From Erysipelothrix larvae (GTDB lineage Bacteria > Bacillota_I > Bacilli_A > Erysipelotrichales > Erysipelotrichaceae), in the NCBI RefSeq assembly GCF_001545095.1, contig NZ_CP013213.1, positions 780,001 to 812,000 on the forward strand: a DNA stretch of 32,000 nt. The letters run 5' to 3'. Under the pieces are notes generated by a model. That model was given only the letters and a program-made list of their open reading frames with translations, was not told the origin of the DNA and did not search any database. The stretch's first letter is position 1. Each line of letters starts with the position of its first letter. A program made the position numbers and the translations under genes. Of this stretch, positions 4,401 to 18,628 are shown one piece after another.

Positions 4401-4610
4401 ATAATAAGTGACTTTACCAAAATTATTCCACTGCAACTCAACTTCATAGGGATATCCGTGATAATCAATTGCGGCATTCAGTGAGTAACTGTTACGAATT
4501 GGATTGTGATCGATATGAAAAGAATCTACTGTGTTCATATACTGTCCAATTTTTATATAATTCCTACTTTTTGATACTACATGTTTTATTTCTTGTTCTT
4601 TAAACACCAT
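1407..4610 (-). CDS. SNF2-family helicase/ATPase with N-terminal SWIM zinc finger (YwqA/RapA-like)
   Basis: 1067-aa ORF. SWIM CxCxnCxH motif CDCYYCTSDSACAH near the N-terminus. SNF2 motifs ILADDMGLGKT (I), LDEAQYIKN (II, DEAQ), LTGTPIEN (III), SLRAGGTGINLT (V) and DPWWNISAQNQATDRAYRFGQ (VI). Confidence 0.92.
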   Translation of the reverse strand: MVFKEQEIKHVVSKSRNYIKIGQYMNTVDSFHIDHNPIRNSYSLNAAIDYHGYPYEVELQWNNFGKVTYYDCDCYYCTSDSACAHVGAVMRLVNAANPHTFPFHWESNRREMFEAHIKQLRMQSMVNASDVFLNQQKNVLKDIRRVEAKSIKLEPIVEQVYADAIYLRIKIGENRMYFIKNISEFIKDVASNSFHKYGKDFSTSHHESAFDVDSLKILNLMQVCTLTNDEHSRRVNEIEINAKTIDLFFDTLCDMNALDGLAFETVDLFDNPLQLQLSVDGEYIQVELANESYFMVGQKNLYAMVHGDDTKYRCIRMDTHNNPNVGVLYSRLASNPLVFRKEDFSDFDRYILNNVSQYFKVNTSGVIQRVELDNRIDIFGDINEEGVAVFNVKAYHNDTLLNETFTSKKSSSVAFEYVLDIFNEYDGILDSTKKITSFDLEKKKTNGFLQDGLEQLKQFSNVYVSESLKRLSLRKANPIRLGITFSNDLLGIDLEHDIIPKDEIKDVLNAYKRKKKFYRLKNGELVALLDEDLHDAQELLEKTGNSANDLEEGNVHVNPYRVFMLDALASQYGIETSTPFKKHLDALQIVNQTQFNVPDTINASLRPYQVEGYRWLKMLEHYGFGGILADDMGLGKTLQMICYFASNTGDKPHFVICPSSVLLNWEQEILKFSPHLKPCIIHGSKKQRDVLIDSIGDYDVVVTSYDYLKRDIERLKELEFQTVVLDEAQYIKNANSKNSKCVKLLNAKQRFALTGTPIENSLAELWSIFDFLMPEYLYKYKYFKDHFESPIVREQNKEVSVQLKQMVKPFILRRLKTEVLSDLPDKTEIDMLIEFSDEERKLYYANLAQVNEELQILGKVEKTSDIEVLALLTRLRRICCEPRTIYENITHRSSKLEAVVSFIQDLKEDGKQVLLFSSFTSVLDFIAEALNHHHISYHTLDGRVNKVDRQTRVQSFQNGEVDVFLISLRAGGTGINLTNAEVVIHFDPWWNISAQNQATDRAYRFGQTKNVLVYRFIMKDSIEEKIQLLQSRKKQLSDTFVEDSDGSVVTMTKSEILSLFASDQIPI

Positions 4611-4825
4611 AAATTACTCCTTCGCTCCCCTTATTATACCGTTTTTTAATGTACTCGTCCCATTAAAATAAAAATAAGGAAAAGCAGCCAATCCGGGAAG
4701 GTATAAAACAAACAATGAAATTGAAGTAAACGGTGAGTGAACGTGTGAATTAGGGACGTAATTCTTCCTATGAAGTTCATCATGAAATCAAGCGAGGGTT
4801 AATTTTCGCTTTCAAGTGATTTTAC

Positions 4826-4854
4826 TTGACATCTAGACGTAAACAGCATAGAAT
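4826..4854 (+). promoter_or_regulatory. Sigma-A-type promoter of the rplM-rpsI operon
   Basis: TTGACA (4826-4831), a 17-nt spacer, then TAGAAT (4849-4854), about 60 nt upstream of the rplM ATG. Confidence 0.6.
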
Positions 4855-4860
4855 TATAGA

Positions 4861-4916
4861 CGGCACTTTATGCCAATTGTAGCCCCGGAAACTACATTGG
4901 TTTAGGAGGAAAAGAT
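4861..4916 (+). promoter_or_regulatory. Structured 5' leader of rplM (candidate L13 ribosomal-protein autoregulatory leader)
   Basis: Two hairpins lie between the predicted start site and the SD: GGCA-CTTTA-TGCC and CCAATTGTAG-CCCCGGAAA-CTACATTGG. The second ends directly at the TTTAGGAGG SD. Firmicute rplM genes are known to carry an L13 leader. Homology was not tested. Confidence 0.45.
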
Positions 4917-5354
4917 ATGCGTCAAACAACTATGACGAAGCCAAGCGAGGTAGTGCGCGAGTGGTATGTTGTCGATGGAACTGACAAGACTTTAGGACGT
5001 CTTGCTACTGAAGTTGCAACTGTACTACGCGGTAAGCACAAACCTACATTTACACCAAACGTTGATGCTGGTGATTATGTAATCGTAATTAACGCTGATA
5101 AGATCAAAGTAACAGGTGATCAAGAATTCAAAAAATTCTATTACAACTACTCTGGTTATGCAGGTGGTGTACGTAAGCGTTCAACACGTGTTATGCGTGA
5201 AAGCTACACTGTTGAATGGGTTGAACGTGCAATCCACGGTATGATCCCACACACAAAATTGGGTGACAAACAACGTAAGCACTTATTTGTATACACAGGC
5301 GCTGAGCATCCACATGCTGCGCAACAACCAAAAGAATTGGTTGTTAAAGGTTAG
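4917..5354 (+). CDS. rplM: 50S ribosomal protein L13
   Basis: 145-aa ORF starting [47 protein letters not shown]..., the canonical L13 N-terminus. Strong SD AGGAGG. Followed by rpsI as in the conserved operon. Confidence 0.97.
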
Positions 5355-5362
5355 GAGGAACT

Positions 5363-5767
5363 ATGGCAAGCAAGAAAAAAACTTTATCGTACTACGGTAC
5401 AGGACGTCGTAAGACATCTGTTGCTCGTGTTTACTTAACTCCTGGCTCAGGTGTAATCACAATCAATCACAAACCGATTGATGAGCATCTTCCAAATGAA
5501 TTGTTACGTATGGATGTACGTTCACCATTTGAAGTAACCTCAACAGCAGATCAATTTGATGTAAATGTAAATGTCTATGGTGGTGGATTAACTGGCCAAG
5601 CTGGTGCAATCCGTCACGGTATTTCTCGTGCATTACTTGAAGTATCAGTAGACTATCGCCCAGCTTTAAAAGCTGCAGGCTTCTTGACACGTGATCCACG
5701 TGCGAAAGAACGTAAAAAATACGGACTTCGTGGTGCGCGTCGTGCTCCACAATACTCAAAACGTTAA
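5363..5767 (+). CDS. rpsI: 30S ribosomal protein S9
   Basis: 134-aa ORF with [12 protein letters not shown] near the N-terminus and the universal S9 C-terminus [16 protein letters not shown] 8 nt upstream. Confidence 0.97.
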
Positions 5768-5830
5768 TTTTTTATTACATGTTTTGTACTCAAAACCCAC
5801 TATTCAGTGGGTTTTTTGATGTTTGAGATA
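5756..5830 (+). repeat. attL: left copy of the island-bounding direct repeat (last rpsI codons, stop and terminator)
   Basis: 5756-5830 aligns with 16936-17009. The first 38 nt are identical (TCAAAACGTTAATTTTTTATTACATGTTTTGTACTCAA). After that there are 4 substitutions within the terminator hairpin and one 1-nt indel. Confidence 0.85.
5792..5817 (+). terminator. Rho-independent terminator of rplM-rpsI (attL copy)
   Basis: AAAACCCAC (5792-5800), loop TATTCA, GTGGGTTTT (5807-5815), continuing into a T run. Confidence 0.85.
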
Positions 5831-5850
5831 GGTTGGGAAAGGTCTATAAA

Positions 5851-5880
5851 GTAGCAAAATGGTAGCAAAAAGGTAGCAAA
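5851..5880 (+). repeat. Three GTAGCAAA direct repeats at exact 11-bp spacing (candidate integrase arm-type binding sites, attL arm)
   Basis: GTAGCAAA at 5851, 5862 and 5873. They lie between attL and the 3' end of the int remnant. Related copies occur at 16880-16897 near attR. Confidence 0.55.
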
Positions 5881-5884
5881 GTTC

Positions 5885-6092
5885 TCATTCGTGAAATAAT
5901 GACACTTCTCTCACAACTGATATTCCATCTTTTTTTGTCTTAGTACAGCCAATAATCTTGTATTTGGGATAAGCTGTACCTTTTTCTTTATTTACTGTAG
6001 TACCAACTTTTATACGAACCATATATAAGGATTGGTACGATTGCCTGGTTGTTTAGCAACACCACCAAATCCTTTAGGTAACACACGTGTCA
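5885..6092 (-). pseudogene. int: Tyrosine integrase remnant: only the N-terminal arm-DNA-binding (AP2-like) domain, frameshifted and truncated
   Basis: The ATG at 6092 overlaps the xis stop (ATGA). Frame 1 reads MTRVLPKGFGGVAKQPGNRTNPYIWFV*. After a shift at the TATATA run (6021-6027) the reading continues VRIKVGTTVNKEKGTAYPKYKIIGCTKTKKDGISVVREVSLFHE* (stop 5885-5887). The pattern LPKGF..GNR.NPY.VRI.VG...GK..YK.IG...TKK is typical of integrase N-terminal arm-binding domains. No core-binding or catalytic domain follows. Confidence 0.6.
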
Positions 6093-6341
6093 TAATTTAT
6101 TTCCTCCTTCTGGTTTATCGTTGAAGTATCCAAGTTCTTCCCAGACAAGTTTATCGGGACAGTAGAAACTGAACACCTGAGAATCATTTTTTTTACAGGC
6201 ATATCCAAATTTTAAGAAACCTTGTTTTAATCCTTCTCTTAAGAATGCTCTGGATCTACTAGTTGCTTTTGCGATCTCTTCAATAGGAACATGTCTTCCT
6301 GTAAAGCTTGGTGTGTTGGCGTACATAATCTTATTTGACAT
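6090..6341 (-). CDS. Excisionase-like small DNA-binding protein (Xis candidate)
   Basis: 83-aa ORF directly upstream of, and translationally coupled to, the int remnant. The central segment VPIEEIAKATSRSRAFLREGLKQGFLKFGYA resembles the HTH of ICE/IME excisionases. SD AAGGAGAG lies upstream of the ATG at 6341. Confidence 0.5.
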   Translation of the reverse strand: MSNKIMYANTPSFTGRHVPIEEIAKATSRSRAFLREGLKQGFLKFGYACKKNDSQVFSFYCPDKLVWEELGYFNDKPEGGNKL

Positions 6342-6416
6342 TTTCTTACTCTCCTTTATAATTTTTGACTGTGTTGAGTTATTTTGTTCTGAATTACTTA
6401 AGAATTATGTATATAA

Positions 6417-6448
6417 AAAGCCAACTGAGTAAAACATCAATTGGCTTT
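6417..6448. terminator. Hairpin/terminator between the IS21 insertion point and xis
   Basis: AAAGCCAA (6417-6424) pairs with TTGGCTTT (6441-6448). T runs follow on both strands (minus-strand RNA reads ...GGCUUUUUAUAU). Confidence 0.5.
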
Positions 6449-6480
6449 ATTTTAAATATTTACAATGAATCTTGAATAGA

Positions 6481-6533
6481 TGTATTTGTTAATCTAAAAG
6501 TGGGCCAATTCTCAATTGAAAACTGGTCCACTA
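6481..6533 (+). repeat. IS21 left terminal inverted repeat (IRL)
   Basis: TGTATTTGTTAATCTAAAAGTGGGCCAATTCTCAATTGAAAACTGGTCCACTA. The inner 23 nt are identical to the reverse complement of IRR. Confidence 0.85.
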
Positions 6534-6593
6534 TTTTTATAACTTCAGAAGTGTGTGATAATGCTTTTGGAGGTGAAAGAGGTGATATCACAA

Positions 6594-8042
6594 ATGAGCA
6601 AATATTCAATTATCACATTAAAAAAGAAAGGATGGTCCAACAGAAAGATTGCCCTTGAATTGGGTATAGACCGAAAGACGGTCGCACGGTATCTTCAGGA
6701 ATATAATAAATGTCAAATACAATTGATTGATAATCATGATTTATCAGACGAAAGAAAAGTAGAAGTCATTGATCAAATTGTTGGGGACCGTCACTATGAT
6801 GCAAGCAAACGAGGTAAGCGCAAGTTAACGCAAGAAATTCAAGCACGCATCATTGAAATTATGGATTCAGAAAAAGATAAAGATATGTTACTAGGAAGAC
6901 ATCATAAGCAAAAGTTAACAGTCACTCAAATTTTTGAAATTATCAAAAGCGAGGGACATGATATTGGTCAGACAACCATACGAAATTTTGTGCATGAAAT
7001 TCAAGCTTCACGAGAAACATTTATTCGACAAGATTATCGATATGGTGAGCGGTTAGAGTTTGACTTTGGAGAAGTAAAGCTTTTAATTAATGGTGAACCA
7101 AGAACATATTATCTCGCTGTTTTCTCATCACCAGCAAGCGGATATCGGTATGCATATTTATATCCAAACCAACGCAAACAAGTATTCATAGATGCACATG
7201 TTCGCTTCTTTGAGCATTCTAAAGGCTCTTGGGGTGAAGTTGTATATGACAATATGAGAAACGTCGTGAAGCGCTTTATAACGCCTTATGAAAAAGAAAT
7301 TAATGATGATTGCCTCAAACTGGCACTCTATTATAATTTTGAAATTAACCTGACTAATATACGAAGTGGTCATGAAAAAGGAAGTGTAGAAAACAGTGTT
7401 AAGGTAATTCGAAATCGTGTATTCGCAAAGGACTATAAGTTTGAAACATTTGAAGAGGCATGTGTTCATCTTGAACAGACTCTTGATGAAATCAATATAA
7501 AGAGTTCAATCGAAGATGAAAAGAAAGAACTTCAACCTTACAGAATTCCTTATGAATTCGCTGATATCGAAGTATATAGTGTTGACAAGTATGGTTGTAT
7601 ACACGTTGAAAATAATTTTTATTCAGTCCCAGACTATCTCCAACACAAAAGAGTTACGGTCAAAAACACCGTAAATTCGATACGCATCTATTCAAATCAC
7701 ACATTTGTGTACGAACATAAAAAGATAGATGGTCATCATCAATATCAGCTTGTGTTGGACCACTATCTGAATACAATGATGACTAAGCCGGGATCTGTAA
7801 AGAATTCACTTGTCCTAAAACAACATCCTGAGCTTTATAACATCTACCATAATCATTATAAAACAAGAACTAAAGAGTTCATAGAAATTCTTCAAGAAAA
7901 CAGGAATGAAACGTATAAAACGCTCAAAGATGCTTTAAAGTATCGGTTGGTTTCAAATACAATTGACACCGTTGAGTATGATGACAGCATACAAGAACAA
8001 TCACGTAAACAACTTAAGAAAATAAGCCAATTAATGCACTAG
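6594..8042 (+). CDS. istA: IS21-family transposase IstA
   Basis: The ORF track gives 6555-8042. The ATG at 6594 is preceded by GGAGGTGAAAGAGGTGA. N-terminal HTH GWSNRKIALELGIDRKTVARYL. About 480 aa, immediately followed by istB, which is the canonical IS21 layout. Confidence 0.88.
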   Translation: MSKYSIITLKKKGWSNRKIALELGIDRKTVARYLQEYNKCQIQLIDNHDLSDERKVEVIDQIVGDRHYDASKRGKRKLTQEIQARIIEIMDSEKDKDMLLGRHHKQKLTVTQIFEIIKSEGHDIGQTTIRNFVHEIQASRETFIRQDYRYGERLEFDFGEVKLLINGEPRTYYLAVFSSPASGYRYAYLYPNQRKQVFIDAHVRFFEHSKGSWGEVVYDNMRNVVKRFITPYEKEINDDCLKLALYYNFEINLTNIRSGHEKGSVENSVKVIRNRVFAKDYKFETFEEACVHLEQTLDEINIKSSIEDEKKELQPYRIPYEFADIEVYSVDKYGCIHVENNFYSVPDYLQHKRVTVKNTVNSIRIYSNHTFVYEHKKIDGHHQYQLVLDHYLNTMMTKPGSVKNSLVLKQHPELYNIYHNHYKTRTKEFIEILQENRNETYKTLKDALKYRLVSNTIDTVEYDDSIQEQSRKQLKKISQLMH

Positions 8043-8053
8043 GAGATAAATTA

Positions 8054-8800
8054 ATGGAAACAATTGAACAATTGTCAAAAGAATTAAAACTTTCATTCAT
8101 AAAAACACACTATGAAGCAGCAATACAGGAAGCGAAACACAAAGGATTGGATTTTCAAGAATTTCTTAACGAACTGCTTTATTGCGAACGAAACAATCGT
8201 CGTGACAACGGAATAAAACAACGCATTCGTGCTGCTCGATTTCCTCAAAACAAGACATTGGAGGATTTTACGACTGTAAAATTTAATTCAGAATTAAAAC
8301 GAAAGTTTAAAGAACTGGAAACATTGAACTTTATAGAAAATAAAGAAAACATTATCTTAATGAGTAATCCTGGAATGGGAAAAACACATTATGCGACCGC
8401 ACTTGGAATCAAAGCTTGTCTAGAAAATAAAAAAGTGCTATTTATCAGCGTTCCTAATCTAATTATAGAGTTAAAAGAAGCTATGTCAAAAAATCAAATT
8501 ACGCAATACAAAAAGAAGTTTGAAAAATTTGATCTAGTAATTCTTGATGAACTCGGCTATGTATCATTTGATAAAGAAGGAAGTGAAATTCTATTCAATC
8601 TAATCTCAAATAGAATAACAGTGGGCTCTATGATTATTACAACAAATTTAATGTTCGATAGATGGGAAGAAATATTCAAAGACCCCATTCTAACAACTGC
8701 TCTAGTCGACCGCTTAACCTATAAATCACATCTATTAAATATGAGTGGAGAGAGTTATCGTGTTGAAGAAACAATTGCTTGGCTAAAGAGCAAAGAATGA
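8054..8800 (+). CDS. istB: IS21-family helper ATPase IstB
   Basis: 248 aa with Walker A NPGMGKTHYA and Walker B LVILDELGY (DnaC/IstB-like AAA+). Starts 12 nt after the istA stop, with SD AGGAG. Confidence 0.9.
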   Translation: METIEQLSKELKLSFIKTHYEAAIQEAKHKGLDFQEFLNELLYCERNNRRDNGIKQRIRAARFPQNKTLEDFTTVKFNSELKRKFKELETLNFIENKENIILMSNPGMGKTHYATALGIKACLENKKVLFISVPNLIIELKEAMSKNQITQYKKKFEKFDLVILDELGYVSFDKEGSEILFNLISNRITVGSMIITTNLMFDRWEEIFKDPILTTALVDRLTYKSHLLNMSGESYRVEETIAWLKSKE

Positions 8801-8807
8801 CAAACGG

Positions 8808-8860
8808 TAGTGGACCAGTTTTCAATTGAGATTTGGACCATTATTCAGTTGACAAATACA
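8808..8860 (-). repeat. IS21 right terminal inverted repeat (IRR)
   Basis: The reverse complement reads TGTATTTGTCAACTGAATAATGGTCCAAATCTCAATTGAAAACTGGTCCACTA, matching IRL at 45 of 53 positions. Confidence 0.85.
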
Positions 8861-9095
8861 ATAGACAGGCTACATTTTCATTGTGCTGTAATTTGTGTGT
8901 CTGCATGTTCTCACCTTAACTTTCTTTTGTAACACAGACACTACCACAGTTCTCTTAACATATCTATCAGAACATGACTTAATAACACAAGAGAATGATT
9001 CAGCATGAAAAAAGTACTGAATCACTCAATCTGTTATCAAATCAAATATTAGAAAACATTTGATTATTAAAATTTTAATTTTGGTTAATTCGAAT

Positions 9096-9335
9096 CTACG
9101 AAGGAATCATCTTCGTAGCACTATTAGGCACAGTTTGGATTCGCTGCTTCGCTAGAGTCTCACCATTCCCAATCAAGGAAACACTTACTTGGCTTGCGAC
9201 GGTCTTATCACGCTCGAACGTCCATAAGTGGCGTATAATTATCACTATCACAGTCACCGCAAGATAGGGTATCAAACCTATTTCATCATCCAGTTTCATC
9301 GCTCTCTAGTTTTCTTAAGGTCATGGCGCACTAAT
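9096..9335 (-). other. GC-richer, hairpin-rich block of unknown nature (candidate structured ncRNA or small-protein gene)
   Basis: Visibly higher G+C than the AT-rich flanks. Perfect 8-bp hairpin CTACGAAG-N7-CTTCGTAG at 9096-9118. Possible long-range pairing CTAGAG/CTCTAG. Only a 67-aa ORF (9096-9299) with a weak SD overlaps it. Strand assignment is tentative. Confidence 0.25.
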
Positions 9336-9505
9336 GAAGGTTGCTTGTGTGATAGATAAAGTCACTAATAATGGCTATACAATTTTCAAAGAACATCCCA
9401 CATTTTTATGTGAGAAGAGGAGGATTAAAATCAACCCCTCTATAGTGATAAGGAATCTCAGAGCGTTTTGAGCACCTTTTTTGCTAAATTTCTAAAAACT
9501 TTTTT

Positions 9506-9898
9506 TTATTTGAGCAACATTGAGCGATGTCTTTTGCTTATAGTGGTCTGACTCATATTCTTTGTTTTTGCATACTCGCGATCACTTAAATCGTGGTAGT
9601 ATATCGCAATGAGTAAATCTTTTTCATCATCGGTAAGGGTGTTAATTGCTTTATAAAGTGCTTCGTATCGTTCCATTTTAAGTGCCTCGTTTCTTGTGGG
9701 GTCTAAATCTTCTAATAGTTTTATTTCAAGTGTGTTACTTTCGTACTCATCAAAAAGATGGTCTAGGTAAACCCAGGTGTTGCGGATTTGTTTGGTAAGA
9801 TAGCGTTCATGTTCAATGCTTTTCCAATATTCTCTATAAACTTCTTCGCTAACGTTAACTGCTTGGTTTATAATGTAGATCACATATGTATCATTCAT
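9506..9898 (-). CDS. Sigma-70 region-4-type HTH protein, Tn916 Orf7-like conjugative-element regulator
   Basis: 130 aa. The C-terminal segment LTDDEKDLLIAIYYHDLSDREYAKTKNMSQTTISKRHRSMLLK is a sigma region-4 HTH. SD AGGAGG lies before the ATG at 9898. It has the same orientation as xis-int, as in Tn916-type regulation modules. Confidence 0.6.
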   Translation of the reverse strand: MNDTYVIYIINQAVNVSEEVYREYWKSIEHERYLTKQIRNTWVYLDHLFDEYESNTLEIKLLEDLDPTRNEALKMERYEALYKAINTLTDDEKDLLIAIYYHDLSDREYAKTKNMSQTTISKRHRSMLLK

Positions 9899-10471
9899 AT
9901 TGATATTCCTCCTGTTTCTGTAATCTGTATTTGATTTGAAACAGGGTGGTGCTCTAACATTTAGAATGCAAAAAAAACTCCTTTAAACCCTGGAGGCAAC
10001 TATAAAGAACATTTAATTGTTATGAGTGGCCTTCAAGTATAATAGCCCAAAGTGTCATATATTCAAATGAACTTTGCTTAAATGGAAACTCCGTACCGTT
10101 TATCATAAATCTGATTATAATCCACGAATGATTTCAAGTAACTGATAAATGTTAAAGTTGCTTCTAGCTTGATTAAACAGTTACTATAAGCTATATATAT
10201 AGAATTAGGTAGCAATATTTTTATGAAAGACTCCGTATACAAGCAAAGCCTATTAAAAGGTTTAGTAATTGTACAACGAATTTCTTAGACACCATTTTGT
10301 CAAACGAATACTAATTTAATAAAAATGTTCGTTATTACTCCTTTGTGCTTTAAACAATGTATTAATGGTCAAATTAAGCAGCATAAATTTAAATGCTATC
10401 TTATATCACAAAGAATTCTTGCTGTAGAATTTACAATTTAATCAATTAAAAATCAACTTATTCGTAATTTG

Positions 10472-10499
10472 TTGAGATTAGATGCTTGAAACTTATAAT
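10472..10499 (+). promoter_or_regulatory. Candidate promoter of the bacteriocin-like operon
   Basis: TTGAGA (10472-10477), a 16-nt spacer, then TATAAT (10494-10499), about 40 nt upstream of the ATG at 10540. Confidence 0.45.
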
Positions 10500-10539
10500 A
10501 GAATCAAGGTTGACATGTGTAATAAAAATAGGATGAGTA

Positions 10540-11001
10540 ATGAAAAAATTATACAAAATTGTGGTAACAAGCGTATTGCTAGCAACGTTTACTTTAAATG
10601 TAAGTGCCGTAATGCTAAAACAATATACAAGCACCACATACGTGGAAAGCACTCATCCGAATATATGGGAATATGTAGGAAATGTTTCCGTTAAGGGTGC
10701 AGATTGGATTCGTATCGATGAAAACAACTGGGCATATCCAAGTTTTAGTCGGATTACCTATCAAGCTCCGAATTTTTTAGGAGGGACATTATCAGGGTAT
10801 TCAAATCACCCTAAAACAGTATATTCAACAGGGAAAAACGATGGTACACAACGTAAGGCAAGTATAACCGTAAAGGATTCTCTTAATCCGATAAATGGTA
10901 AAACTAAAGCACTTTGGAATATTAATCTTATTAACCGTGGAGTGCAGCCGGGTGATCCCAAACCTTGGAGCGTTGAAACCAAATTAACTGGATTAGAATA
11001 G
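10540..11001 (+). CDS. Secreted 153-aa protein, lactococcin-972-like bacteriocin candidate (enlarged)
   Basis: Sec signal peptide MKKLYKIVVTSVLLATFTLNVSA. The mature part contains W-EYVG and GYSNHPKTVYSTGKNDGTQRKASITV. From memory these resemble the Lcn972 mature motifs TWQHGYG and YSNYHHGSKTHSATV...GKDTQRAG. It is followed by DUF1430-type membrane proteins plus an ABC ATPase, which is the canonical Lcn972 locus architecture. Confidence 0.55.
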   Translation: MKKLYKIVVTSVLLATFTLNVSAVMLKQYTSTTYVESTHPNIWEYVGNVSVKGADWIRIDENNWAYPSFSRITYQAPNFLGGTLSGYSNHPKTVYSTGKNDGTQRKASITVKDSLNPINGKTKALWNINLINRGVQPGDPKPWSVETKLTGLE

Positions 11002-11060
11002 ACCTAAAAAAAGTATTTTAAAAGTGATTACACATGTCTTCCATTTATAGAGGTGATACT

Positions 11061-12080
11061 ATGAAAAAAATTAGATTATACGCAATGAGTACTACAAATT
11101 TATTAATTCTTCTAACACTTTTAATGATGCTAAGTTATGTGCATTTAAGTGCAAAAAGAGAGAAACTTCCATTTTTTATGACACCTAATTTTATTAAAGT
11201 AACCAATAATAGTGCTAACAATGTGCCAGTTAGACTTCTTGAAAAATATAACTCAGAAGAAGATATCACAATCATCAGTGCTTATGACGAGGAAGCCACA
11301 ATTGGTATTTATGATCCAAATATGAACTATGCTATGGGGAATACAGTGATTTTCTTTGGCCAAACACGTTATTTTTCATCAAGTGACTATTTGAATGCGA
11401 CGAAATCTGGAATTATAGTATCTGATAATCTAGCTTACGATATGGAACATTGTAAATTATCTAATAATGATCACATTGAAGATGTTATGTATTGTACAGA
11501 TTCAGAGAGTATGCTTTCAAATGATGGCAAGACACGACAAATTGTTAATTTATTTTCATTTGATAATCTCGGTGAATCCGTGTATCTAGATTATTATTCA
11601 GAATCTGGTAAAGGTGTTGTAAGTCAAATCGTTAGTGATCTTAAACAAAATGGATACCACGTTGATTCAAGCGACATTCCTAATGTTATTGAAGCACTAA
11701 TTCAGCCAAATAAAGGCTTGATTAGTGTCATTATGACTGGAAGTTTTGTTTTTTATATACTATATTACATTGTGTCATACTGGTATTTCTTCAATATGCG
11801 AAGGGAAGTTTCAATTCACTATTTACATGGGGGACAGTTTAAAAGTATGGCTCATCGCTTTGTAAAGCCACTGTTTTATATTTCAATATTACAGCTAACC
11901 GTTGCATATCTCTTTGCGAATTATCAACGAAGTTTTGGCTACTTAATTATGAGTAATGGATCATTACTGATTATTTCTATTTTCCACATCGTGCTAACAC
12001 TTTCCATTCATGTCATTGCTTACCAAAGAGTTTATACAAGCATTAAGAATAAGCGAGGTGATACTGATTATGTTAGATAA
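11061..12080 (+). CDS. FtsX/DUF1430-type integral membrane protein (bacteriocin-associated immunity/export permease, paralog 1)
   Basis: The ORF track gives 11034-12080. The ATG at 11061 follows SD AGAGGTGA. Topology is one N-terminal TM, a ~190-aa extracytoplasmic domain, then three C-terminal TMs. The motif NMRREVSIHYLHGGQFKSM sits after TM2, as in MacB/FtsX-type permeases. Confidence 0.7.
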   Translation: MKKIRLYAMSTTNLLILLTLLMMLSYVHLSAKREKLPFFMTPNFIKVTNNSANNVPVRLLEKYNSEEDITIISAYDEEATIGIYDPNMNYAMGNTVIFFGQTRYFSSSDYLNATKSGIIVSDNLAYDMEHCKLSNNDHIEDVMYCTDSESMLSNDGKTRQIVNLFSFDNLGESVYLDYYSESGKGVVSQIVSDLKQNGYHVDSSDIPNVIEALIQPNKGLISVIMTGSFVFYILYYIVSYWYFFNMRREVSIHYLHGGQFKSMAHRFVKPLFYISILQLTVAYLFANYQRSFGYLIMSNGSLLIISIFHIVLTLSIHVIAYQRVYTSIKNKRGDTDYVR

Positions 12081-13155
12081 TATTCGATATGGACTTAGGG
12101 ATGTCTACAAAAATAAAATTTTCTTCATAATAACCGTCTTTTTCTTAGTTACACTTAATGTGGTTGCGGTAATAACCGCATATTCAATTCGCTATGACTA
12201 TTATGAAAGAGAACAAATTGAAACTCAAGAAGCCGTTAGATTTAAAGCTGTTCCTGTAGGCTATGATTTCAAGTATGATAAAAAAAATCTTGATAAGTAT
12301 ATGGAAATACTTAATCAAAATGCAATGACATATCGAATTTCATATACACTTTCTGAAGAAAATGATGCATTGGTTTTTCTTGTTTTTGGGGATCCATCTC
12401 TAATTAATGATGAAATTGAAAGTAGTTTGAATACTGATGAAGTAAAAGTTTACACATATGACGAAGCAGTTGATAAAGAAATTAAAGTTCTCGACGAGAC
12501 CTATCCGGTACATTTAATCAATTATGATAATCATAATTTGAGTATTTTTAATGATATAGGACGAGATTCTATATTAGTTGTCTATCAGGGACACAATGCA
12601 TATGAAGTTATAAATCTTCTTTTACAATCCGATTCAGGTACCTTTTATGAATTATTATCGCAAACAATTGTACGCCAGGATGATAGACAGCGTATTGATG
12701 CATTCATGGACTTTGTGAATACAAATATTAAAGAGTTTAAATTTATAAGTCCGTATATCATCGCGATGGATGACTATGTTTCATCAAATCATGTCTTTAT
12801 TCGTCATTATCTCATACCCTTGTATATTATTATGTTTTTCATGGGTGTCTTTTCATTCCAAGTAATTTTTAAAGGGCTTTTGAATAAGATGCAAAGAGAA
12901 TTCACGATTCATGTCCTTCATGGTGCAAAGTTTCGCGATATCTTGATACGGCAACTGGTGTTCTATTTGTCGATGATGATAACTGCGGTAGTTTTGGCTG
13001 GAATCTTTGTGTTTCCAATTGGAAGACAAGAACCATTGATTGTTCTCTCTGTATTGATTACAAGTGGATTGATTCTGCTGATGAGTATCATTTATATCTA
13101 TATTGCATTGAAAAGAACAAATTTATTTGAGAACTTGAGAGGAGATCATGTATGA
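12070..13155 (+). CDS. FtsX/DUF1430-type integral membrane protein (paralog 2)
   Basis: The ORF track gives 12010-13155. The ATG at 12070 follows SD GAGGTGA and overlaps the paralog-1 stop by 11 nt. Topology is the same 1+3 TM arrangement, with the matching motif NKMQREFTIHVLHGAKFRDI. Confidence 0.7.
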   Translation: MLDNIRYGLRDVYKNKIFFIITVFFLVTLNVVAVITAYSIRYDYYEREQIETQEAVRFKAVPVGYDFKYDKKNLDKYMEILNQNAMTYRISYTLSEENDALVFLVFGDPSLINDEIESSLNTDEVKVYTYDEAVDKEIKVLDETYPVHLINYDNHNLSIFNDIGRDSILVVYQGHNAYEVINLLLQSDSGTFYELLSQTIVRQDDRQRIDAFMDFVNTNIKEFKFISPYIIAMDDYVSSNHVFIRHYLIPLYIIMFFMGVFSFQVIFKGLLNKMQREFTIHVLHGAKFRDILIRQLVFYLSMMITAVVLAGIFVFPIGRQEPLIVLSVLITSGLILLMSIIYIYIALKRTNLFENLRGDHV

Positions 13156-13823
13156 TTTTAGAGTTGCGAAATGTTAACCGGATCTATGAGACCGATGGTT
13201 TACGAAAACAAGCATTGAAAGATATTACGATTAAGATAAGTTCTGGAGATCAGATTATGATTTTGGGTGCTTCAGGATCTGGAAAATCAACGTTATTGAA
13301 TATCATTGGGTTACTTGACAAAGGGTATGAGGGGCAGTACCTGATTGATGGTATCGAGAGAAAGACGTTAACAGAAAAAGAGCAAGCAACATTGAGAAGT
13401 CGTTTATTCGGATATGTATTTCAAGATTTTGTTTTAGTCGAAAATGAAACAATTTTTGAGAATGTCAGAATTCCATTAATTTATTCAACCATTGAGAAAA
13501 GTAAGCACAAAGCGATGATTGAAACGGCTCTAGAAGGCGTAGGTTTAGCGGGGATGAGTCGTAAACGTGTGAAGTATCTGTCAGGTGGTGAACGGCAACG
13601 TGTTGCGATTGCACGTGCGTTAGTAAATCAACCGAAGATTGTGATTGCGGATGAGCCTACAGGATCGTTAGATCAAATTACACGTGAACAAGTATTAGAT
13701 ATCATATACAATTACCTCGATGAGGATAAGATATTGCTTTTTGTTACCCATGATTTAGAGAATAATCGAAGAGGTGAACAAAAAATAATTGATATAAAAA
13801 ACGGTGAGTTATTTTTTGACTAA
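13152..13823 (+). CDS. ABC transporter ATP-binding protein (MacB/LolD-like)
   Basis: 223 aa with Walker A GASGSGKST, signature LSGGERQRVAIARAL and Walker B IVIADEPTGSLD. The start overlaps the upstream stop (ATGA). Confidence 0.92.
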   Translation: MILELRNVNRIYETDGLRKQALKDITIKISSGDQIMILGASGSGKSTLLNIIGLLDKGYEGQYLIDGIERKTLTEKEQATLRSRLFGYVFQDFVLVENETIFENVRIPLIYSTIEKSKHKAMIETALEGVGLAGMSRKRVKYLSGGERQRVAIARALVNQPKIVIADEPTGSLDQITREQVLDIIYNYLDEDKILLFVTHDLENNRRGEQKIIDIKNGELFFD

Positions 13824-13854
13824 GTCGAATGGTGTTGATATAAATTTGCAAAGT

Positions 13855-13882
13855 GAGAAAGCAATTTGCTTTCTTTTTTTTT
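13855..13882 (+). terminator. Rho-independent terminator after the ABC ATPase
   Basis: GAGAAAGCA / TGCTTTCTT stem with a 3-nt loop, followed by a T run of at least 8. Confidence 0.8.
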
Positions 13883-13990
13883 GAAATCAAGAGCCATGTT
13901 TAAGCATATTAGCAATTTTAAAATTAACTATTAAATATCTAAAAAATACTATTCTATGGTAATATGAAATAGTGATGGGAGGGGTAATCT

Positions 13991-14713
13991 GTGTTTAAAG
14001 TAGCACTCGTTGATGATAATCCAAGCATTCATAGTATTATTAGAAAACTATTGAATGATTCATTTGCGGTTCATAAATTTGAATTGAAGTCGTACTATTC
14101 TGCCGAAGATCTTTTAGAGGATTATTCTAATAGTCATTTTTCTTTTCTTTTATTAGATATAGAAATGCCTGAAACAAACGGAATAGAGCTGTCGGAGAAA
14201 CTGCAATTTCTGAATCACAAAATCCCCATAATCTTTTTGACGTCGTATGAACACTATATGAAAGATGCCTTTGGATTAAATGTCTATAGTTACATTTTGA
14301 AAGATAATATGATAGAAGAGCTACCCAGTGTTATAAGAAAACTTTTAGTTACTCTTGAAGTAATTGAAAATCGCATACAAGTATCGTTTAATACAGATAT
14401 GGGAAATATTAAGCTTTACGAGGAAGATATTGTATGTGTTTATTTTGAGGATAGGCGACCAACAATTTATACAAAAAAAATAAAGGTAAGGGTTTATGGA
14501 GAGGCTTTGTACTCTGTGTATGAAAAACTTTCGAGTGATATGTTTTTACAACCAAATAGTGGAATTATAGTAAATCTTAAGTATATAAAGACGATTCAAG
14601 ATATGATTATATATTTAAATTTTTTTCCTTTTCCGATAACTATTTCAAGAAGTAAAATTAGAGTCATAAAGAGTAAATATACAGAATTCTTGGCCAGAGG
14701 AGATTCACTTTGA
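13991..14713 (+). CDS. LytTR-family response regulator (AgrA-like)
   Basis: 240 aa with a GTG start after GGGAGGGG. Receiver domain: VALVDDNP and the phospho-acceptor context LLLDIEMPETNGIEL. The ~100-aa C-terminal domain is LytTR-type (...IVCVYFEDRRPTIYTKK...). Confidence 0.85.
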   Translation: MFKVALVDDNPSIHSIIRKLLNDSFAVHKFELKSYYSAEDLLEDYSNSHFSFLLLDIEMPETNGIELSEKLQFLNHKIPIIFLTSYEHYMKDAFGLNVYSYILKDNMIEELPSVIRKLLVTLEVIENRIQVSFNTDMGNIKLYEEDIVCVYFEDRRPTIYTKKIKVRVYGEALYSVYEKLSSDMFLQPNSGIIVNLKYIKTIQDMIIYLNFFPFPITISRSKIRVIKSKYTEFLARGDSL

Positions 14714-16005
14714 TTTTGCAAAATATAATACTCGTTATCATCGAGTTATTTTATTGTTCAATTGATGTAATGCTCTTGCATTATTTTTGTTCAATATTGA
14801 TGACAAAGAAAAAGAAAAATATGTTTGTTGAAATTTCTATCTATTGCATCGCTGTTATAGGAGTATTTTTGTTAACATATGGTACACTTTTTTCGAAAAG
14901 TGGCAATTTATTATCGTTTCTTATTATGCTGCTATATGCATATATAATATTTGAAAAAGCATCGAGTGGTGCATTTATTACGGTAAGTTTTTATTATATC
15001 TGCTCAGGAATTGTAACACTTCTTACTGCTTCAGTAGTACCGATGGTTTTTGATACATCTATTTCTAGTATAATGTCAAATCCGTTATTTCGATCATTAA
15101 TTGTCCTATTTACGAAACTATTGATACTTTTAATAGGGTTTTTCTGCCGTAATAAGTTTAGTCTATATTCAGACAATACAGTAAACTTGCGTGGCGTCCT
15201 GATATTCTTTGTCATCGTATTTGTCAATTTGACTTTTGTTTTTGAATTTGTGTATTTAAGTGAAGAAATTCCGTTGGAAAACCTAGTTTTAACTATGATC
15301 TTCACTTTTATAATCTTTATTGTATTAATTACGATATTAATGATGAAGTATATAGATGAAAAAGAGAAAACTATTAATCTTGAAATTAAACTTGAAGAAG
15401 CAAACCGGAAAAATGAAGAATACATAAAAATTGCGAGTGACCAAGTTGAAATTATGAGGGTAAAACATGATTTAAAAAATCATCTTGTTGTTTTAGATAG
15501 CTTCATTCAGCAAAACGGCATTGAAGATGCAAAAAAATATTTAGACAAACTTTTTGTTCATCCAGGGTTAAAATCATATGTAAATACTAAAAATATGATT
15601 ATAAATGCAGTAATGAATCAAAAAATTGCTGAATATCCAAATATTAGGTTCAAGGTAAGACACGACGATAATTTCTATAATATAAGTGATACTGCATTAA
15701 CGATTATTTTGGGTAATGCTCTTGATAACGCAATTGAGGCAGTTAAATTTATGAATAGTCCAGAAGTAAAAGTAGTTTTTAGTGAGAACGAAAACTATAT
15801 TAAGTTGTATATAGAAAATCCATTTAGTATACAACCAATAATTAGACGTGGAAAATTCATAACACAGAAGGATTCGAGATTTTCTGGTATCGGTATAAAT
15901 AATATATTACAGGCTTCAAAATCAGTAGGTGGTGAAGCGGTTTTTAAAGTTGAATCTAACGTATTCAAACTTGTTGTACTTGTGGATAAACATTTCAATC
16001 AATAA
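14710..16005 (+). CDS. AgrC-type (HPK10, GHKL) sensor histidine kinase
   Basis: 431 aa. The TTG start overlaps the response regulator stop and follows SD AGAGGAG. The N-terminal ~215 aa are polytopic (6-7 TM). H-box MRVKHDLKNHL, N-box LGNALDNAIEA, G-box SGIGINNIL. Confidence 0.85.
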   Translation: MILQNIILVIIELFYCSIDVMLLHYFCSILMTKKKKNMFVEISIYCIAVIGVFLLTYGTLFSKSGNLLSFLIMLLYAYIIFEKASSGAFITVSFYYICSGIVTLLTASVVPMVFDTSISSIMSNPLFRSLIVLFTKLLILLIGFFCRNKFSLYSDNTVNLRGVLIFFVIVFVNLTFVFEFVYLSEEIPLENLVLTMIFTFIIFIVLITILMMKYIDEKEKTINLEIKLEEANRKNEEYIKIASDQVEIMRVKHDLKNHLVVLDSFIQQNGIEDAKKYLDKLFVHPGLKSYVNTKNMIINAVMNQKIAEYPNIRFKVRHDDNFYNISDTALTIILGNALDNAIEAVKFMNSPEVKVVFSENENYIKLYIENPFSIQPIIRRGKFITQKDSRFSGIGINNILQASKSVGGEAVFKVESNVFKLVVLVDKHFNQ

Positions 16006-16073
16006 AAATGCAAAATAAACAAAATATATTTTAAAGTATGCTTTATATGGCTATGATAAAAGCGGTGATTAAT

Positions 16074-16622
16074 ATGGATTATATTACAAAAAAAATAAGC
16101 AATTGGCTTTTAAAAGAAAATTACATTACTGATGATCAAGCTGACGATATCATATATGCTTTAGAAATAGTTATTTCCAATATTCTTCCGTTTACCACCA
16201 TTTTGATTTTGGGAGTTGTATTTCAACAATTGACCAAGACTGTATTATTTTTTCTAGTTTTTGTTGGTTTTCGAATATTAAGAGATAGATATCATGCGCC
16301 AACTTTTTTAAAATGTTATATACTCACAGTTGGTTCGTTCATAAGTTGTTTAGTAATGTCACTTATCATTAATCTTGAGGTTCAACTCCTATTTACATTC
16401 TACATGGTAATTCTAAATATTCTACTATTCGTAGTCTTCAAAACAAAAATCGATGAAGGTCAAAATCAAAAATCTAATTTTATCTATAATTTTATATTAA
16501 TAACGTACAATTCTCTATGTTTAATATTGAGTAAATTTGTTTTACATGAGTACACTGTTTTTTTATCAGTTCTTGGACTAATTATTGTTTCAACGTCAAT
16601 TGCCAAAGAAAAATCAAATTAG
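16074..16622 (+). CDS. agrB: AgrB-family accessory gene regulator protein B (AIP-precursor processing peptidase)
   Basis: The ORF track gives 16038-16622; the ATG at 16074 is preferred. Polytopic membrane protein with the segment FRILRDRYHAPTFLKCYILTV. This carries the AgrB catalytic His and Cys exactly 7 residues apart (H74/C81 here; H77/C84 in S. aureus AgrB). Confidence 0.8.
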   Translation: MDYITKKISNWLLKENYITDDQADDIIYALEIVISNILPFTTILILGVVFQQLTKTVLFFLVFVGFRILRDRYHAPTFLKCYILTVGSFISCLVMSLIINLEVQLLFTFYMVILNILLFVVFKTKIDEGQNQKSNFIYNFILITYNSLCLILSKFVLHEYTVFLSVLGLIIVSTSIAKEKSN

Positions 16623-16879
16623 CAAATATAAAAATACAACTTATTCAATATTGAAACAGTTTATTCAAAATCATTTTACATAAAAGTAATTTTGGAAACT
16701 CTAAATAGATAAAGGAAAACTGGACTTGATGAAGATTATACATGTAAGTCGTTGACTCAATTTTGTATGAGAGAAAAGGACTGTTATATAGTCTTCTAAA
16801 CGGAGGGATTTAAAGTGTAGCTGTCTAGTAGTTGTTTAGAATTCCAAAGTTTGTATATAGTTTACGATGTTTGACAAAT

Positions 16880-16897
16880 GTAGCATGGAGTAGCAAA
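16880..16897 (+). repeat. GTAGCA(AA) direct repeats near attR (candidate arm-type integrase sites)
   Basis: GTAGCATG at 16880 and GTAGCAAA at 16890. They have the same orientation as the three copies at 5851-5880 and lie about 40 nt inside attR. Confidence 0.45.
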
Positions 16898-16935
16898 CCA
16901 CTCACAAACCCTTATATCTAGTACATTAGGAATTA

Positions 16936-17009
16936 TCAAAACGTTAATTTTTTATTACATGTTTTGTACTCAAGGCCCACTATCTAGTGGGTTTTTTGAT
17001 GTTTAGATA
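16936..17009 (+). repeat. attR: right copy of the island-bounding direct repeat
   Basis: See attL. Contains TCAAAACGTTAA (a pseudo-3' end of rpsI) plus a variant terminator hairpin. Confidence 0.85.
16972..16997 (+). terminator. Second copy of the rpsI-type terminator (attR copy)
   Basis: AAGGCCCAC / GTGGGTTTT stem (two G-U pairs) followed by a T run. No gene lies immediately upstream of it. Confidence 0.6.
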
Positions 17010-17278
17010 TCGTAGAAAAACAGCATAAAGTCCCCTTTAAGAAGCACCAAAGCAGTGGAATTAACCATCACAATGTGCCCAGTTGAATGAACATGAACAC
17101 TCAGTGAACCTAAGACAATTCAACTTCATCATTTTATCGAAAGTTTTTATATTAATTGTATATTCATGCATTTGATCGGCTATAAAATGTCGCTTTACAC
17201 ATATTGTCAAATAAAAACTGGCTAAAGATAAACACGTGTAACAATCCAAACAAATGCTTTAGGGTGTAGAATATGTAT

Positions 17279-17322
17279 AAAAAAAGACAACAAGCACGTT
17301 TTGATTTTGAGCTTGTTGTCTT
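17279..17322 (-). terminator. Rho-independent terminator of the PTS EIIC gene
   Basis: AAGACAACAAGC (17284-17295) pairs with GCTTGTTGTCTT (17311-17322). A 7-T run follows on the minus strand. It lies 20 nt downstream of the stop at 17342. Confidence 0.8.
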
Positions 17323-17341
17323 AATGGTTACACGTTTTATA

Positions 17342-18628
17342 TTATTTCGCGATAAGTTTTTGTTCATCGGCGAGTTGCTTCTTGTCCATTGTTTTGAAGA
17401 ATGGATAATAGAGACATAAATCAAGTGCTAGAATCATAAATTGAAGAAGAATTGCACCAATATTCCAATTCGTTGCGATGGCACCACTTAATCCAATAGG
17501 CATGGTCCAAGATGGGTTAATTCCCACAGGTCTTGCGACAAGGTTAAAATTCATCAATGTATACACTACAAGAAGATTAATCACTGGAACAAAGATATAT
17601 GGAATCAACATGACAGGATTCAAGACAATTGGAACACCAAACATAAGAGGCTCGTTGATATTGAATACCGATGGTACGATACTAAGTTTACCCATTGTTT
17701 TCATTTGTTTACTCTTTGAGAAAAATGCAAGCAAGATTGCGAGTGCTAGTGTAGCACCGCCACCACCGAGCCATACAAAATTCATCATAAATGGATAACT
17801 TATAATATTAGGAATCTGTTTTCCTGCTTCAAACGCGAGTCTGTTTGCGTCCATGAGAGAAAACCAAATTGGATACATCACGGCACCAATCAAATCAGTT
17901 CCGTGTATGCCTAAGAACCAGAAGACAGATGAGAGAATAATCGCAACTAAAGTACCACCAAGGCCACTACCAATTCGAGTGAGTGGGATTCCGATTAATG
18001 TTGTTACAACATCATGAAGTCCTTGTGATCCTGTTTGACGTGCAAAGTAATCAAGAAATGCCCAAATAAAGAGAATTGCGAATCCAGGGATAATGGATGA
18101 AAAAGCAGCACTAACCCCCGAAGGTACTGTTTCTGGCATTTTAATTGTCCAGTCCATTTTCACGATGAAGCGATAAATTTCTACACTCACAAGTGCAAGC
18201 ACGATTGCGCTAAATAATCCACCACTGCCAAGTTTTGAATAGTCAATACCACTCAAACCCTCACCATCAAGTACAGATGGCGTAATGATGATAAATGCAG
18301 ATAATGAGATGATTCCTACGGAAACGTCGGGAAGACCATATTCTTTTGCAAGATTATAGGCTACACCAAATGCAACAACAAGTGCCATTACCCCAAAACT
18401 ACCATTTGTAATTTTACTTAATACACCCCCAACATTGCCAAATTTAGTCAATGTTTCAGTCCAATTTGGGATGGGTAAATTTCCAATTACCATTGATAAT
18501 GATCCAATGATTATCAATGGCATTGCCATCGACATCCCCAAGAAAACAGCGTGGAAATGTTTTTGCCCTTGCAGTTTACCTGCATAAGGCAATATTTTTT
18601 CTTCTAAAAACGTATTAATTCTTTCCAT
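17342..18628 (-). CDS. PTS lactose/cellobiose-family EIIC permease
   Basis: The ORF track gives 17342-18658. The ATG at 18628 follows TAGGAGGAAAT. The protein starts MERINTFLEEKILPYAGKLQGQKHFHAVFLGM..., the typical CelB/LicC-type EIIC N-terminus. About 10 TM segments. Confidence 0.85.
   Translation of the reverse strand: MERINTFLEEKILPYAGKLQGQKHFHAVFLGMSMAMPLIIIGSLSMVIGNLPIPNWTETLTKFGNVGGVLSKITNGSFGVMALVVAFGVAYNLAKEYGLPDVSVGIISLSAFIIITPSVLDGEGLSGIDYSKLGSGGLFSAIVLALVSVEIYRFIVKMDWTIKMPETVPSGVSAAFSSIIPGFAILFIWAFLDYFARQTGSQGLHDVVTTLIGIPLTRIGSGLGGTLVAIILSSVFWFLGIHGTDLIGAVMYPIWFSLMDANRLAFEAGKQIPNIISYPFMMNFVWLGGGGATLALAILLAFFSKSKQMKTMGKLSIVPSVFNINEPLMFGVPIVLNPVMLIPYIFVPVINLLVVYTLMNFNLVARPVGINPSWTMPIGLSGAIATNWNIGAILLQFMILALDLCLYYPFFKTMDKKQLADEQKLIAK

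Follow-up and report, generated by a model that had tools for sequence, protein, structure and literature searches.

Here we show that the agr-like quorum-sensing module of Erysipelothrix larvae that occupies positions 13991-16622 of the window, a 32-kb stretch of the chromosome (contig NZ_CP013213.1) to which all window searches refer, is a decayed member of a rare, uncharacterised agrA-agrC-agrB-agrD cassette of the Erysipelotrichaceae. The module consists of genes for a LytTR-type response regulator, a histidine kinase and an AgrB-like membrane peptidase, and the gene for the AgrD precursor is missing from it. Most probably, the window holds a truncated copy of the cassette in which agrD has been replaced; we predict this copy to be signal-negative, though it may still respond to the signal. 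The puzzle of an agr-like module without agrD is thus resolved: what looked like an agr system able to work without AgrD is a copy of the cassette that lost agrD.

The loss becomes visible when the window is compared with near-identical copies. Window positions 10201-16695 are 98.7% identical to the metagenomic contig L001, and shorter stretches are about 98.5-98.9% identical to L002-L006. In all six contigs the match ends exactly at position 16695, and the sequence beyond is unrelated. The junction lies 31 nucleotides (nt) before the position of the agrD ribosome-binding site. On the far side, L001-L006 continue with GCAAAGATTAGTAAAAAGGAGGATATTAATATG..., which corresponds to the ribosome-binding site and start of agrD, and in the window unrelated, non-coding DNA follows for 235 nt, as far as the right copy of a 74-nt repeat (Table 1). 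Judging by this comparison, the agrD gene of the window has been removed by deletion. The original prediction, made from the sequence of the window alone, had offered three alternatives for the missing agrD, and the third of these, loss at the decayed end of an island, is borne out by the break in identity to agrD-bearing copies at 16695/16696. No IS3 terminal repeat was found at the window junction.

The absence of agrD could also stem from an error in the sequencing or assembly of the reference genome, as the right end of the cassette is located in repeat-bounded DNA that is rich in insertion sequences (IS). A separate Logan assembly (L085, run SRR6161627), whose strain is possibly the same and possibly a different one, encodes the same kinase and matches the window base for base across the junction and over the 270 nt that follow. 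Since L085 reproduces the junction, misassembly of the reference is unlikely, and we hardly give credence to an artefact.

What the window has lost can be read from its relatives. The AgrB family is rare: a single-sequence search of 5.8 billion proteins returned five clusters, and a profile search 20. A scan of JGI metagenomes with the AgrB profile gave no match, and the 71 JGI loci retrieved with a DNA pattern for WGMYRPK were all chance matches and were discarded. The order regulator-kinase-AgrB is kept in every contig that extends upstream of agrB, and it is therefore a property of the family and not of this island. By translating the DNA downstream of agrB in the contigs of the relatives, we found a conserved open reading frame (ORF) of 28-39 codons in eight distinct related loci, whose AgrB proteins are 34-98% identical to that of the window (Table 2). 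The peptide consensus is M..IV..LL......SSLS[IL]WG[MLF]Y[RK]PK. The ORF is usually located 70-130 nt 3' of agrB (L001-L005, L007, L008, L010, L011, L086 and L089); in L087/L088 it precedes agrA instead. In the latter contigs (positions 2460-2579) about 385 nt separate it from the response regulator gene downstream, so that the order is D-A-C-B, and the tail of the peptide is longer (TKKTETHHPSIEY).

Several observations bear on the identity of these small ORFs. Firstly, a Shine-Dalgarno sequence, GGAGG or GGGGG, is present 5-9 nt before the ORF in 7/7 loci examined. Secondly, synonymous codons vary between loci within the invariant peptide core, as expected of a translated, selected peptide (L089 lay outside both checks). 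Thirdly, the sole NCBIfam match of the peptides is TIGR04223, the family of AgrD cyclic lactone autoinducer peptides, with scores of 19.8 (L007), 15.6 (L011) and 13.3 bits (L001) against a cutoff of 19; the Pfam AgrD model matched none of them. Finally, the register S-x-W-x-x-Y-x-P-K of the peptides is that of the known rings [CLWFT] of C. perfringens and [SSWVA] and [CPWII] of C. difficile (PMC12312760). Because of this register, and in view of the gene context, the Shine-Dalgarno sequences and the pattern of conservation, we read the small ORFs as agrD. On this reading, the order of the intact cassette is agrA-agrC-agrB-agrD, and AgrD would begin with a hydrophobic leader, followed by the core S-[IL]-W-G-[MLF] and by a basic tail of very few residues, Y-[RK]-P-K-R-K. 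By analogy with the register of known AgrD proteins, the core would give rise to a five-residue Ser-lactone ring, S-I/L-W-G-M/L/F, with cleavage before the Tyr. The original prediction had proposed a search of sister elements for small ORFs with a leader, a Cys- or Ser-type ring motif and an acidic tail; the ORFs found have the leader and a predicted Ser ring core, and their tail is basic, not acidic. The alternative of an atypically tiny or unrecognised peptide holds for the family, and not for this window.

In the window itself, a hidden Markov model (HMM) of the AgrD family scored at most 6.6 bits in any of the six frames, against 67-73 bits for true copies. The statement that no agrD is recognisable thus stands for the window and falls for the family, in which eight loci contain the gene. 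Of the 47 small ORFs in intergenic DNA from 5700 to 17400, none matched TIGR04223, and three positive controls in the same run did match. Generic AgrD models applied to six-frame translations joined with X were negative as well, a result of little weight because the control recovered only the strongest known AgrD. Three candidate ORFs (16585-16683; 16832-16921; and 13804-13884, a terminator-encoded one ending in ...EKAICFLFF) were rejected because they show no homology, no leader and no conservation.

One relative resembles the window. The only AgrB-family locus in the GTDB species set, L009 from Erysipelothrix sp. UBA3377, contains regulator, kinase and AgrB at 4132-6771, and no agrD was detected in its 16.7 kb with the family HMM or with generic models, the sensitivity of the generic scan being limited. 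L009 may represent a second independent loss of agrD, or its agrD may be located elsewhere. The same locus could be taken as a sign that the three-gene arrangement is an ancestral functional design, in which AgrB acts on another substrate and copies of the L001 type gained agrD later. Against this, agrD is present in eight distinct loci down to an AgrB identity of 34%, and the window retains the promoter boxes of agrD without the gene and breaks off abruptly into 235 nt of unrelated DNA. We therefore disfavour an ancestral design and consider it very improbable.

Table 1. Features of the module and its surroundings in the window
Feature	Position	Strand	Remarks
agrA-like response regulator (receiver + LytTR), AOC36_03600	13991-14713	+	domain matches, motifs
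agrC-like HPK10 histidine kinase, seven-segment membrane sensor, AOC36_03605	14710-16005	+	
agrB-like membrane peptidase	16038-16622	+	PF04647
Predicted output operon	10540-13823	+	153-aa protein, two membrane proteins, ABC ATPase
LytTR-type direct-repeat pair before the secreted-protein/ABC operon	10434-10465	+	CAATTTAATCAA, 8-nt gap, CAACTTATTCGT; 20-nt step; position weight matrix scan agrees
Best sigma-70-like promoter of the region, TTGAGA-16-TATAAT	10472-10499	+	11/12 consensus positions; begins 7 nt 3' of the box pair
Weak (degenerate) LytTR-box pair upstream of agrB	15991-16022	+	scores 7.5 and 7.4
Orphan LytTR-box pair of the lost agrD promoter	16637-16668	+	CAACTTATTCAA, 8-nt gap, CAGTTTATTCAA
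Deletion/replacement junction	16695-16696	.	16695 is the last base common to agrD-bearing copies
Strain-unique 235 nt	16696-16930	+	without coding potential, without Rfam match
Left copy of the 74-nt direct repeat (rpsI 3' end + terminator)	5751-5824	+	rpsI is 5363-5767
Right copy of the 74-nt direct repeat	16931-17004	+	includes rpsI-type terminator 16972-16995

Table 2. Peptides encoded by the small ORFs in relatives of the module
Locus	AgrB identity to window	Peptide	Remarks
L001-L005	98%	MSFIVNKLLQLAHSSNSFSIWGMYRPKRK	
L010	66%	MSYIVNKLLLLANSASSLSIWGMYKPKRKKSI	
L007	59%	MNFIVKMLLMVSDKASSLSIWGMYRPKR	cut by contig end
L011	58%	MSYVIRVLMMISNKASSLSIWGMYRPKRKR	
L008	49%	MKTIVNFLLTLSATSDSLSLWGLYRPKKRKHQEDA	
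L086	45%	MKSIIEFLLLIGSKADSLSLWGLYKPKRR	
L087/88	39%	MKLLVTVLLTIARYSDSLSLWGFYRPTKKTETHHPSIEY	upstream of regulator
L089	34%	MKTLLNGLFLVASKAETLSIWGFYKPKLKK	

Between agrB and agrD, the relatives have a pair of CAAyTTAwTCAA repeats with a 20-nt step, and in the sister loci 55-60 nt lie between the end of this pair and the start codon of agrD. Its second unit, ACAGTTTAT, agrees with the AgrA consensus. The pattern TTAWTC-N14-TTAWTC occurs twice in the 32 kb (10438-10463 and 16641-16666), against 0.08 occurrences expected from shuffles, and both are at predicted promoter positions: one pair precedes the neighbouring secreted-protein/ABC operon, the other where the agrD promoter would have been (Table 1). 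A position weight matrix built only from the units of agrB-agrD spacers (null expectation 0.16 pairs per window) also detects pairs upstream of agrB in seven loci. They are clearest in L007, L008, L010 and L011, where both units are strong (sums of 26-34 bits); in L009 one unit is strong and one weak (22.7; 17.5 + 5.2), and the pairs of L086 (17.0; 7.3 + 9.7) and of the window (Table 1) are weak. These agrB-proximal hits in other loci are independent of the motif definition. In L007, a pair also points at a bacteriocin-like gene. No such pair is present upstream of the regulator gene, which is separated from the upstream operon by a terminator at 13855-13875; the next terminator 3' of agrB is that of the rpsI copy.

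The three proteins of the module had been identified correctly in the original prediction, as domain matches and motifs confirm. Regulator and kinase, as well as ribosomal protein S9, match E. larvae proteins exactly. The regulator has a receiver (Response_reg, E=4e-18) and a LytTR domain (E=1.4e-8), with D8, D9 and D56 present. The kinase has a GHKL domain (HATPase_c_5, E=6e-14), seven hydrophobic segments in residues 6-210 according to a hydropathy scan, and an H-box KHDLKNH (H253), an N-box GNALDNA at 336 and a G-box SGIG at 393. It is not an AgrC equivalog, since it scores 33 bits against a cutoff of 500 for that model. AgrB matches PF04647 (E=2.8e-20) over positions 2-178 of 185 of the model, and its true start is likely the conserved Met codon at 16074. 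It contains H86 and C93, seven residues apart (YHAPTFLKC) and invariant in six homologues. These residues align with AHAPSSFWC, the stretch of S. aureus AgrB that contains H77 and C84. H77 and C84 form the invariant catalytic dyad of the latter protein (PMC10482373). Searches of PDB sequences with AgrB gave no match.

In the intact cassette, regulator and kinase would be expressed on their own, and the phosphorylated regulator is predicted to bind the CAAyTTAwTCAA pairs before agrB, agrD and the secreted-protein/ABC operon. We infer that such binding would result in autoinduction and in density-dependent expression of the neighbouring operon. Control of this operon by the module had already been suggested, and it gains in silico support from the box pair located directly upstream of the sigma-70-like promoter. 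In the window, everything to the right of 16695 has been replaced, including the ribosome-binding site and ORF of agrD, leaving an orphan box pair that reads into non-coding DNA. Since agrD is replaced, the strain is predicted to make no autoinducer of its own, and the operon may be switched on by peptide from cells with an intact cassette. Thus, the cell can probably hear the signal and not make it.

Some observations weigh against reading the module as a truncated cassette that may still respond. The agrB-upstream box pair is degenerate in the lineage of the window. The box motif was partly defined on sequence common to the window, and the two hits of the window are thus not fully independent of it. 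Only one of five small-ORF peptides reached the curated TIGR04223 cutoff, and two of the five were unmatched. Compared with the agrD-positive copies, AgrB of the window has the changes S41T, D103V and I124T (182-aa numbering for D103V), and the position of D103V is an Asp in the five closest homologues, although L009 differs. The ratio of non-synonymous to synonymous codon differences relative to L001 is 13:5 for the kinase and 3:1 for AgrB, as compared with 3:5 for the regulator. The remaining cassette genes may therefore be decaying rather than working. In its full form, this alternative holds that the whole cassette is a non-functional remnant, in which regulator, kinase and AgrB have drifted since the loss of agrD and no longer respond to peptide; the IS activity and decay seen throughout the insert would fit with it. 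On the other hand, none of the three reading frames is truncated, their catalytic and phospho-acceptor motifs are intact, and the same non-synonymous excess is found between agrD-positive copies and, with similar ratios, in the neighbouring operon, which may reflect very recent divergence. Because the codon changes are so few, relaxed selection and recent divergence cannot be separated. We regard a complete remnant as possible, if rather doubtful.

A further point against the reading of a truncated, signal-negative copy is that the agrD search covered 32 kb of the genome, so that another part of the E. larvae chromosome may hold a second agrD or agrBD locus. In that case the cassette would be fully functional, with AgrB processing a peptide supplied in trans. 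The position of agrD does vary within the family (L087/88), clostridia have agrBD loci apart from agrCA (PMC12312760), and agrB of the window is still an intact ORF. However, near-identical copies carry agrD exactly at the breakpoint of the window, the orphan boxes of its promoter remain, nothing AgrD-like was found in the 32 kb, and the sole GTDB genome match for the AgrB family belongs to another species. A precursor gene elsewhere thus seems unlikely to us.

Apart from the window, the cassette shows signs of mobility and of repeated damage. The contigs L083 and L084 contain the same module, 97.5% identical to that of the window, and in both agrB is interrupted after about 66 codons (L083 11526 and L084 5860, corresponding to window position ~16234) by an IS3-like end, TGTAATGGTATAGTGAATTTGTAACA..., followed by the start of an HTH_Tnp_1-type ORF. 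The rplM-rpsI region of L083 (2299-3333) is only 72% identical to that of the window (4862-5878), and the module is again located just downstream of rpsI. As the module is 97.5-99% identical in hosts whose rplM-rpsI sequences differ by 28%, the cassette moves between species, and the comparison points to a recent horizontal transfer with the same chromosomal hotspot as its target. With the IS in agrB of L083/84 beside the deletion of agrD in the window, at least two independent lesions affect signal-production genes and leave the receptor pair intact; the signal-production half has therefore been hit repeatedly. It is tempting, though speculative, to view E. larvae as a natural signal-negative listener, whose working receptor pair and peptide-inducible, bacteriocin- or immunity-like secreted-protein/ABC operon would respond to a [SIWGM]-type lactone of its neighbours, within a horizontally shared quorum-sensing dialect in which the signal half is repeatedly lost and the sensing half kept; we hold this for less probable than not.

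The intact relatives have the same four parts as the staphylococcal agrBDCA and clostridial agr systems: AgrB (PF04647), AgrD (TIGR04223), an HPK10 AgrC and a LytTR AgrA. The spacing of the AgrB His/Cys dyad is identical, and the precursors share the hydrophobic leader, the register of the five-residue ring and the conserved Pro three residues after the ring; paired AgrA/LytTR-type direct repeats are also common to both. Of these agr hallmarks, the AgrB dyad and the HPK10 kinase with a LytTR regulator are present in the window, and the AgrD precursor gene is missing from it and present in eight sister loci. The parts list and logic are those of agr, and what differs is the gene order (A-C-B-D, or D-A-C-B in L087/88), the separate box pairs before agrB and agrD instead of one P2 promoter, the short basic-tailed precursor, and the taxonomic setting. 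The precursor has 28-39 residues, not 40-50, and its ring residue is Ser, not Cys. The tail is basic and 5-15 residues long, whereas known tails are acidic and have 14-15 residues (PMC12312760); it measures 5-11 residues in the seven complete precursors other than that of L087/88 (15), the one of L007 being cut by the contig end. Also unlike these systems, the window contains no RNAIII match (no Rfam hits in the whole window), the kinase stays far below the AgrC equivalog cutoff, and agrD is deleted. Ser-lactone autoinducers as such are already known (PMC12312760; PMC8251862). A literature search found no paper linking Erysipelothrix functionally with AgrD.

A related arrangement is that of C. 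difficile R20291, whose agr locus has the order agrA-agrC-agrD-agrB (PMC3754575). The position of agrB at the end, which had been noted as an anomaly, is real, and an order with regulator and kinase first is known from that strain. The ring of its agr2 system (autoinducing peptide NSA[SSWVA]) is of the Ser type, as predicted here, and likewise has Trp as its third residue (PMC3754575, PMC12312760). Unlike in the cassette described here, agrD precedes agrB in agr2, its AgrD has 46 residues, a single transcript has been reported, and no adjacent bacteriocin-type ABC operon has been described. The ComDE/BlpRH/PlnBCD systems likewise combine an HPK10 kinase and a LytTR regulator with paired direct repeats before the pheromone gene and before bacteriocin/ABC transporter operons. 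However, they use linear double-glycine peptides and C39-peptidase ABC exporters, in place of AgrB as the maturation enzyme, and family scans of the window proteins detected neither a double-glycine leader nor a C39 domain. As regards the lesions, independent mutations, insertions and deletions inactivate agr in natural S. aureus populations (PMC12312760), comparable to the agrD deletion in one copy and the IS in agrB of a sister copy seen here. In S. aureus, however, the lesions are mostly in agrC/agrA and make the cell signal-blind, whereas here they affect signal production and spare the receptor pair.

The comparison defines an undescribed agr subfamily in Erysipelotrichaceae-like bacteria. 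Its gene order is unusual, its Ser-type, basic-tailed precursors are unusually short, its regulator-box motif is clear and its output operon can be predicted. With these traits, the peptide is easily synthesised and the circuit easily tested. One and the same mobile cassette exists with all its genes, with agrD deleted and with agrB disrupted, and these versions provide a small natural system in which loss of signal production can be set against retention of sensing.

In the predicted output operon, the first gene codes for a 153-aa protein that has a hydrophobic helix at its N-terminus. Two genes for membrane proteins follow (11034-12080 and 12010-13155), and the last gene, at 13152-13823, is that of an ABC ATPase. 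The best NCBIfam match of the ATPase is TIGR03608, the exporter of the lactococcin-972 group, with 209 bits, below the cutoff of 254.85; the 153-aa protein and both membrane proteins have no family match, and a single-sequence AF2 model of the 153-aa protein was unusable (pLDDT 41). With this protein unmatched and the ATPase below cutoff, the locus does not qualify as a lactococcin-972-type bacteriocin locus. In L007 and L009, too, genes for an FtsX-type ABC system and for a small lipoprotein or secreted protein accompany the cassette. The earlier term bacteriocin-type operon is thus a reasonable analogy, resting on this pairing and on the resemblance of the ATPase, rather than a statement of family membership. 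As listed, the two membrane-protein ORFs overlap by 71 nt; the real start of the second is probably near 12070, because this gene is called 20 codons shorter (361 aa) in the relatives. To the left of the operon, on the minus strand, an ORF at 9506-9898 encodes a 130-aa sigma-70 region-4-like protein. About 250 nt upstream of it, on the same strand and just outside the segment shared with L001, there is a weak LytTR-box-like pair at 10149-10180 (scores 11.7 and 5.1).

The module is part of an 11.2-kb insert bracketed by the two copies of the 74-nt repeat, which are 92% identical. The repeat predicted as attR is real, and the distance of about 310 nt given for the stretch from agrB to attR agrees with the 308 nt at 16623-16930. 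The end of rpsI of another species (L083 3191-3333) aligns with window positions 16931-17074. The strain-unique 235 nt are probably the right arm of the insert, and include AGTAGCAAA, which is also part of a triple repeat at the left end of the insert. No integrase gene remains in the insert, and a plasmid megablast gave no match. An IS21-family element lies inside the insert at 6481-8860, with istA at 6555-8042, istB at 8054-8800 and 53-nt terminal inverted repeats that are 85% complementary. In L003, beyond an IS3 element that follows agrD, 77 nt at 4994-5070 are 77% identical, in inverted orientation, to window positions 17074-16998, just to the right of the 74-nt repeat. The sequence [A/G]GTAGCAAA, which is no more frequent in the window than expected by chance, is present in three tandem copies with an 11-nt step (5850-5880) just inside the left repeat and in one copy (16889-16897), on the same strand, just inside the right repeat; these copies may be arm-type recombinase sites of the insert.

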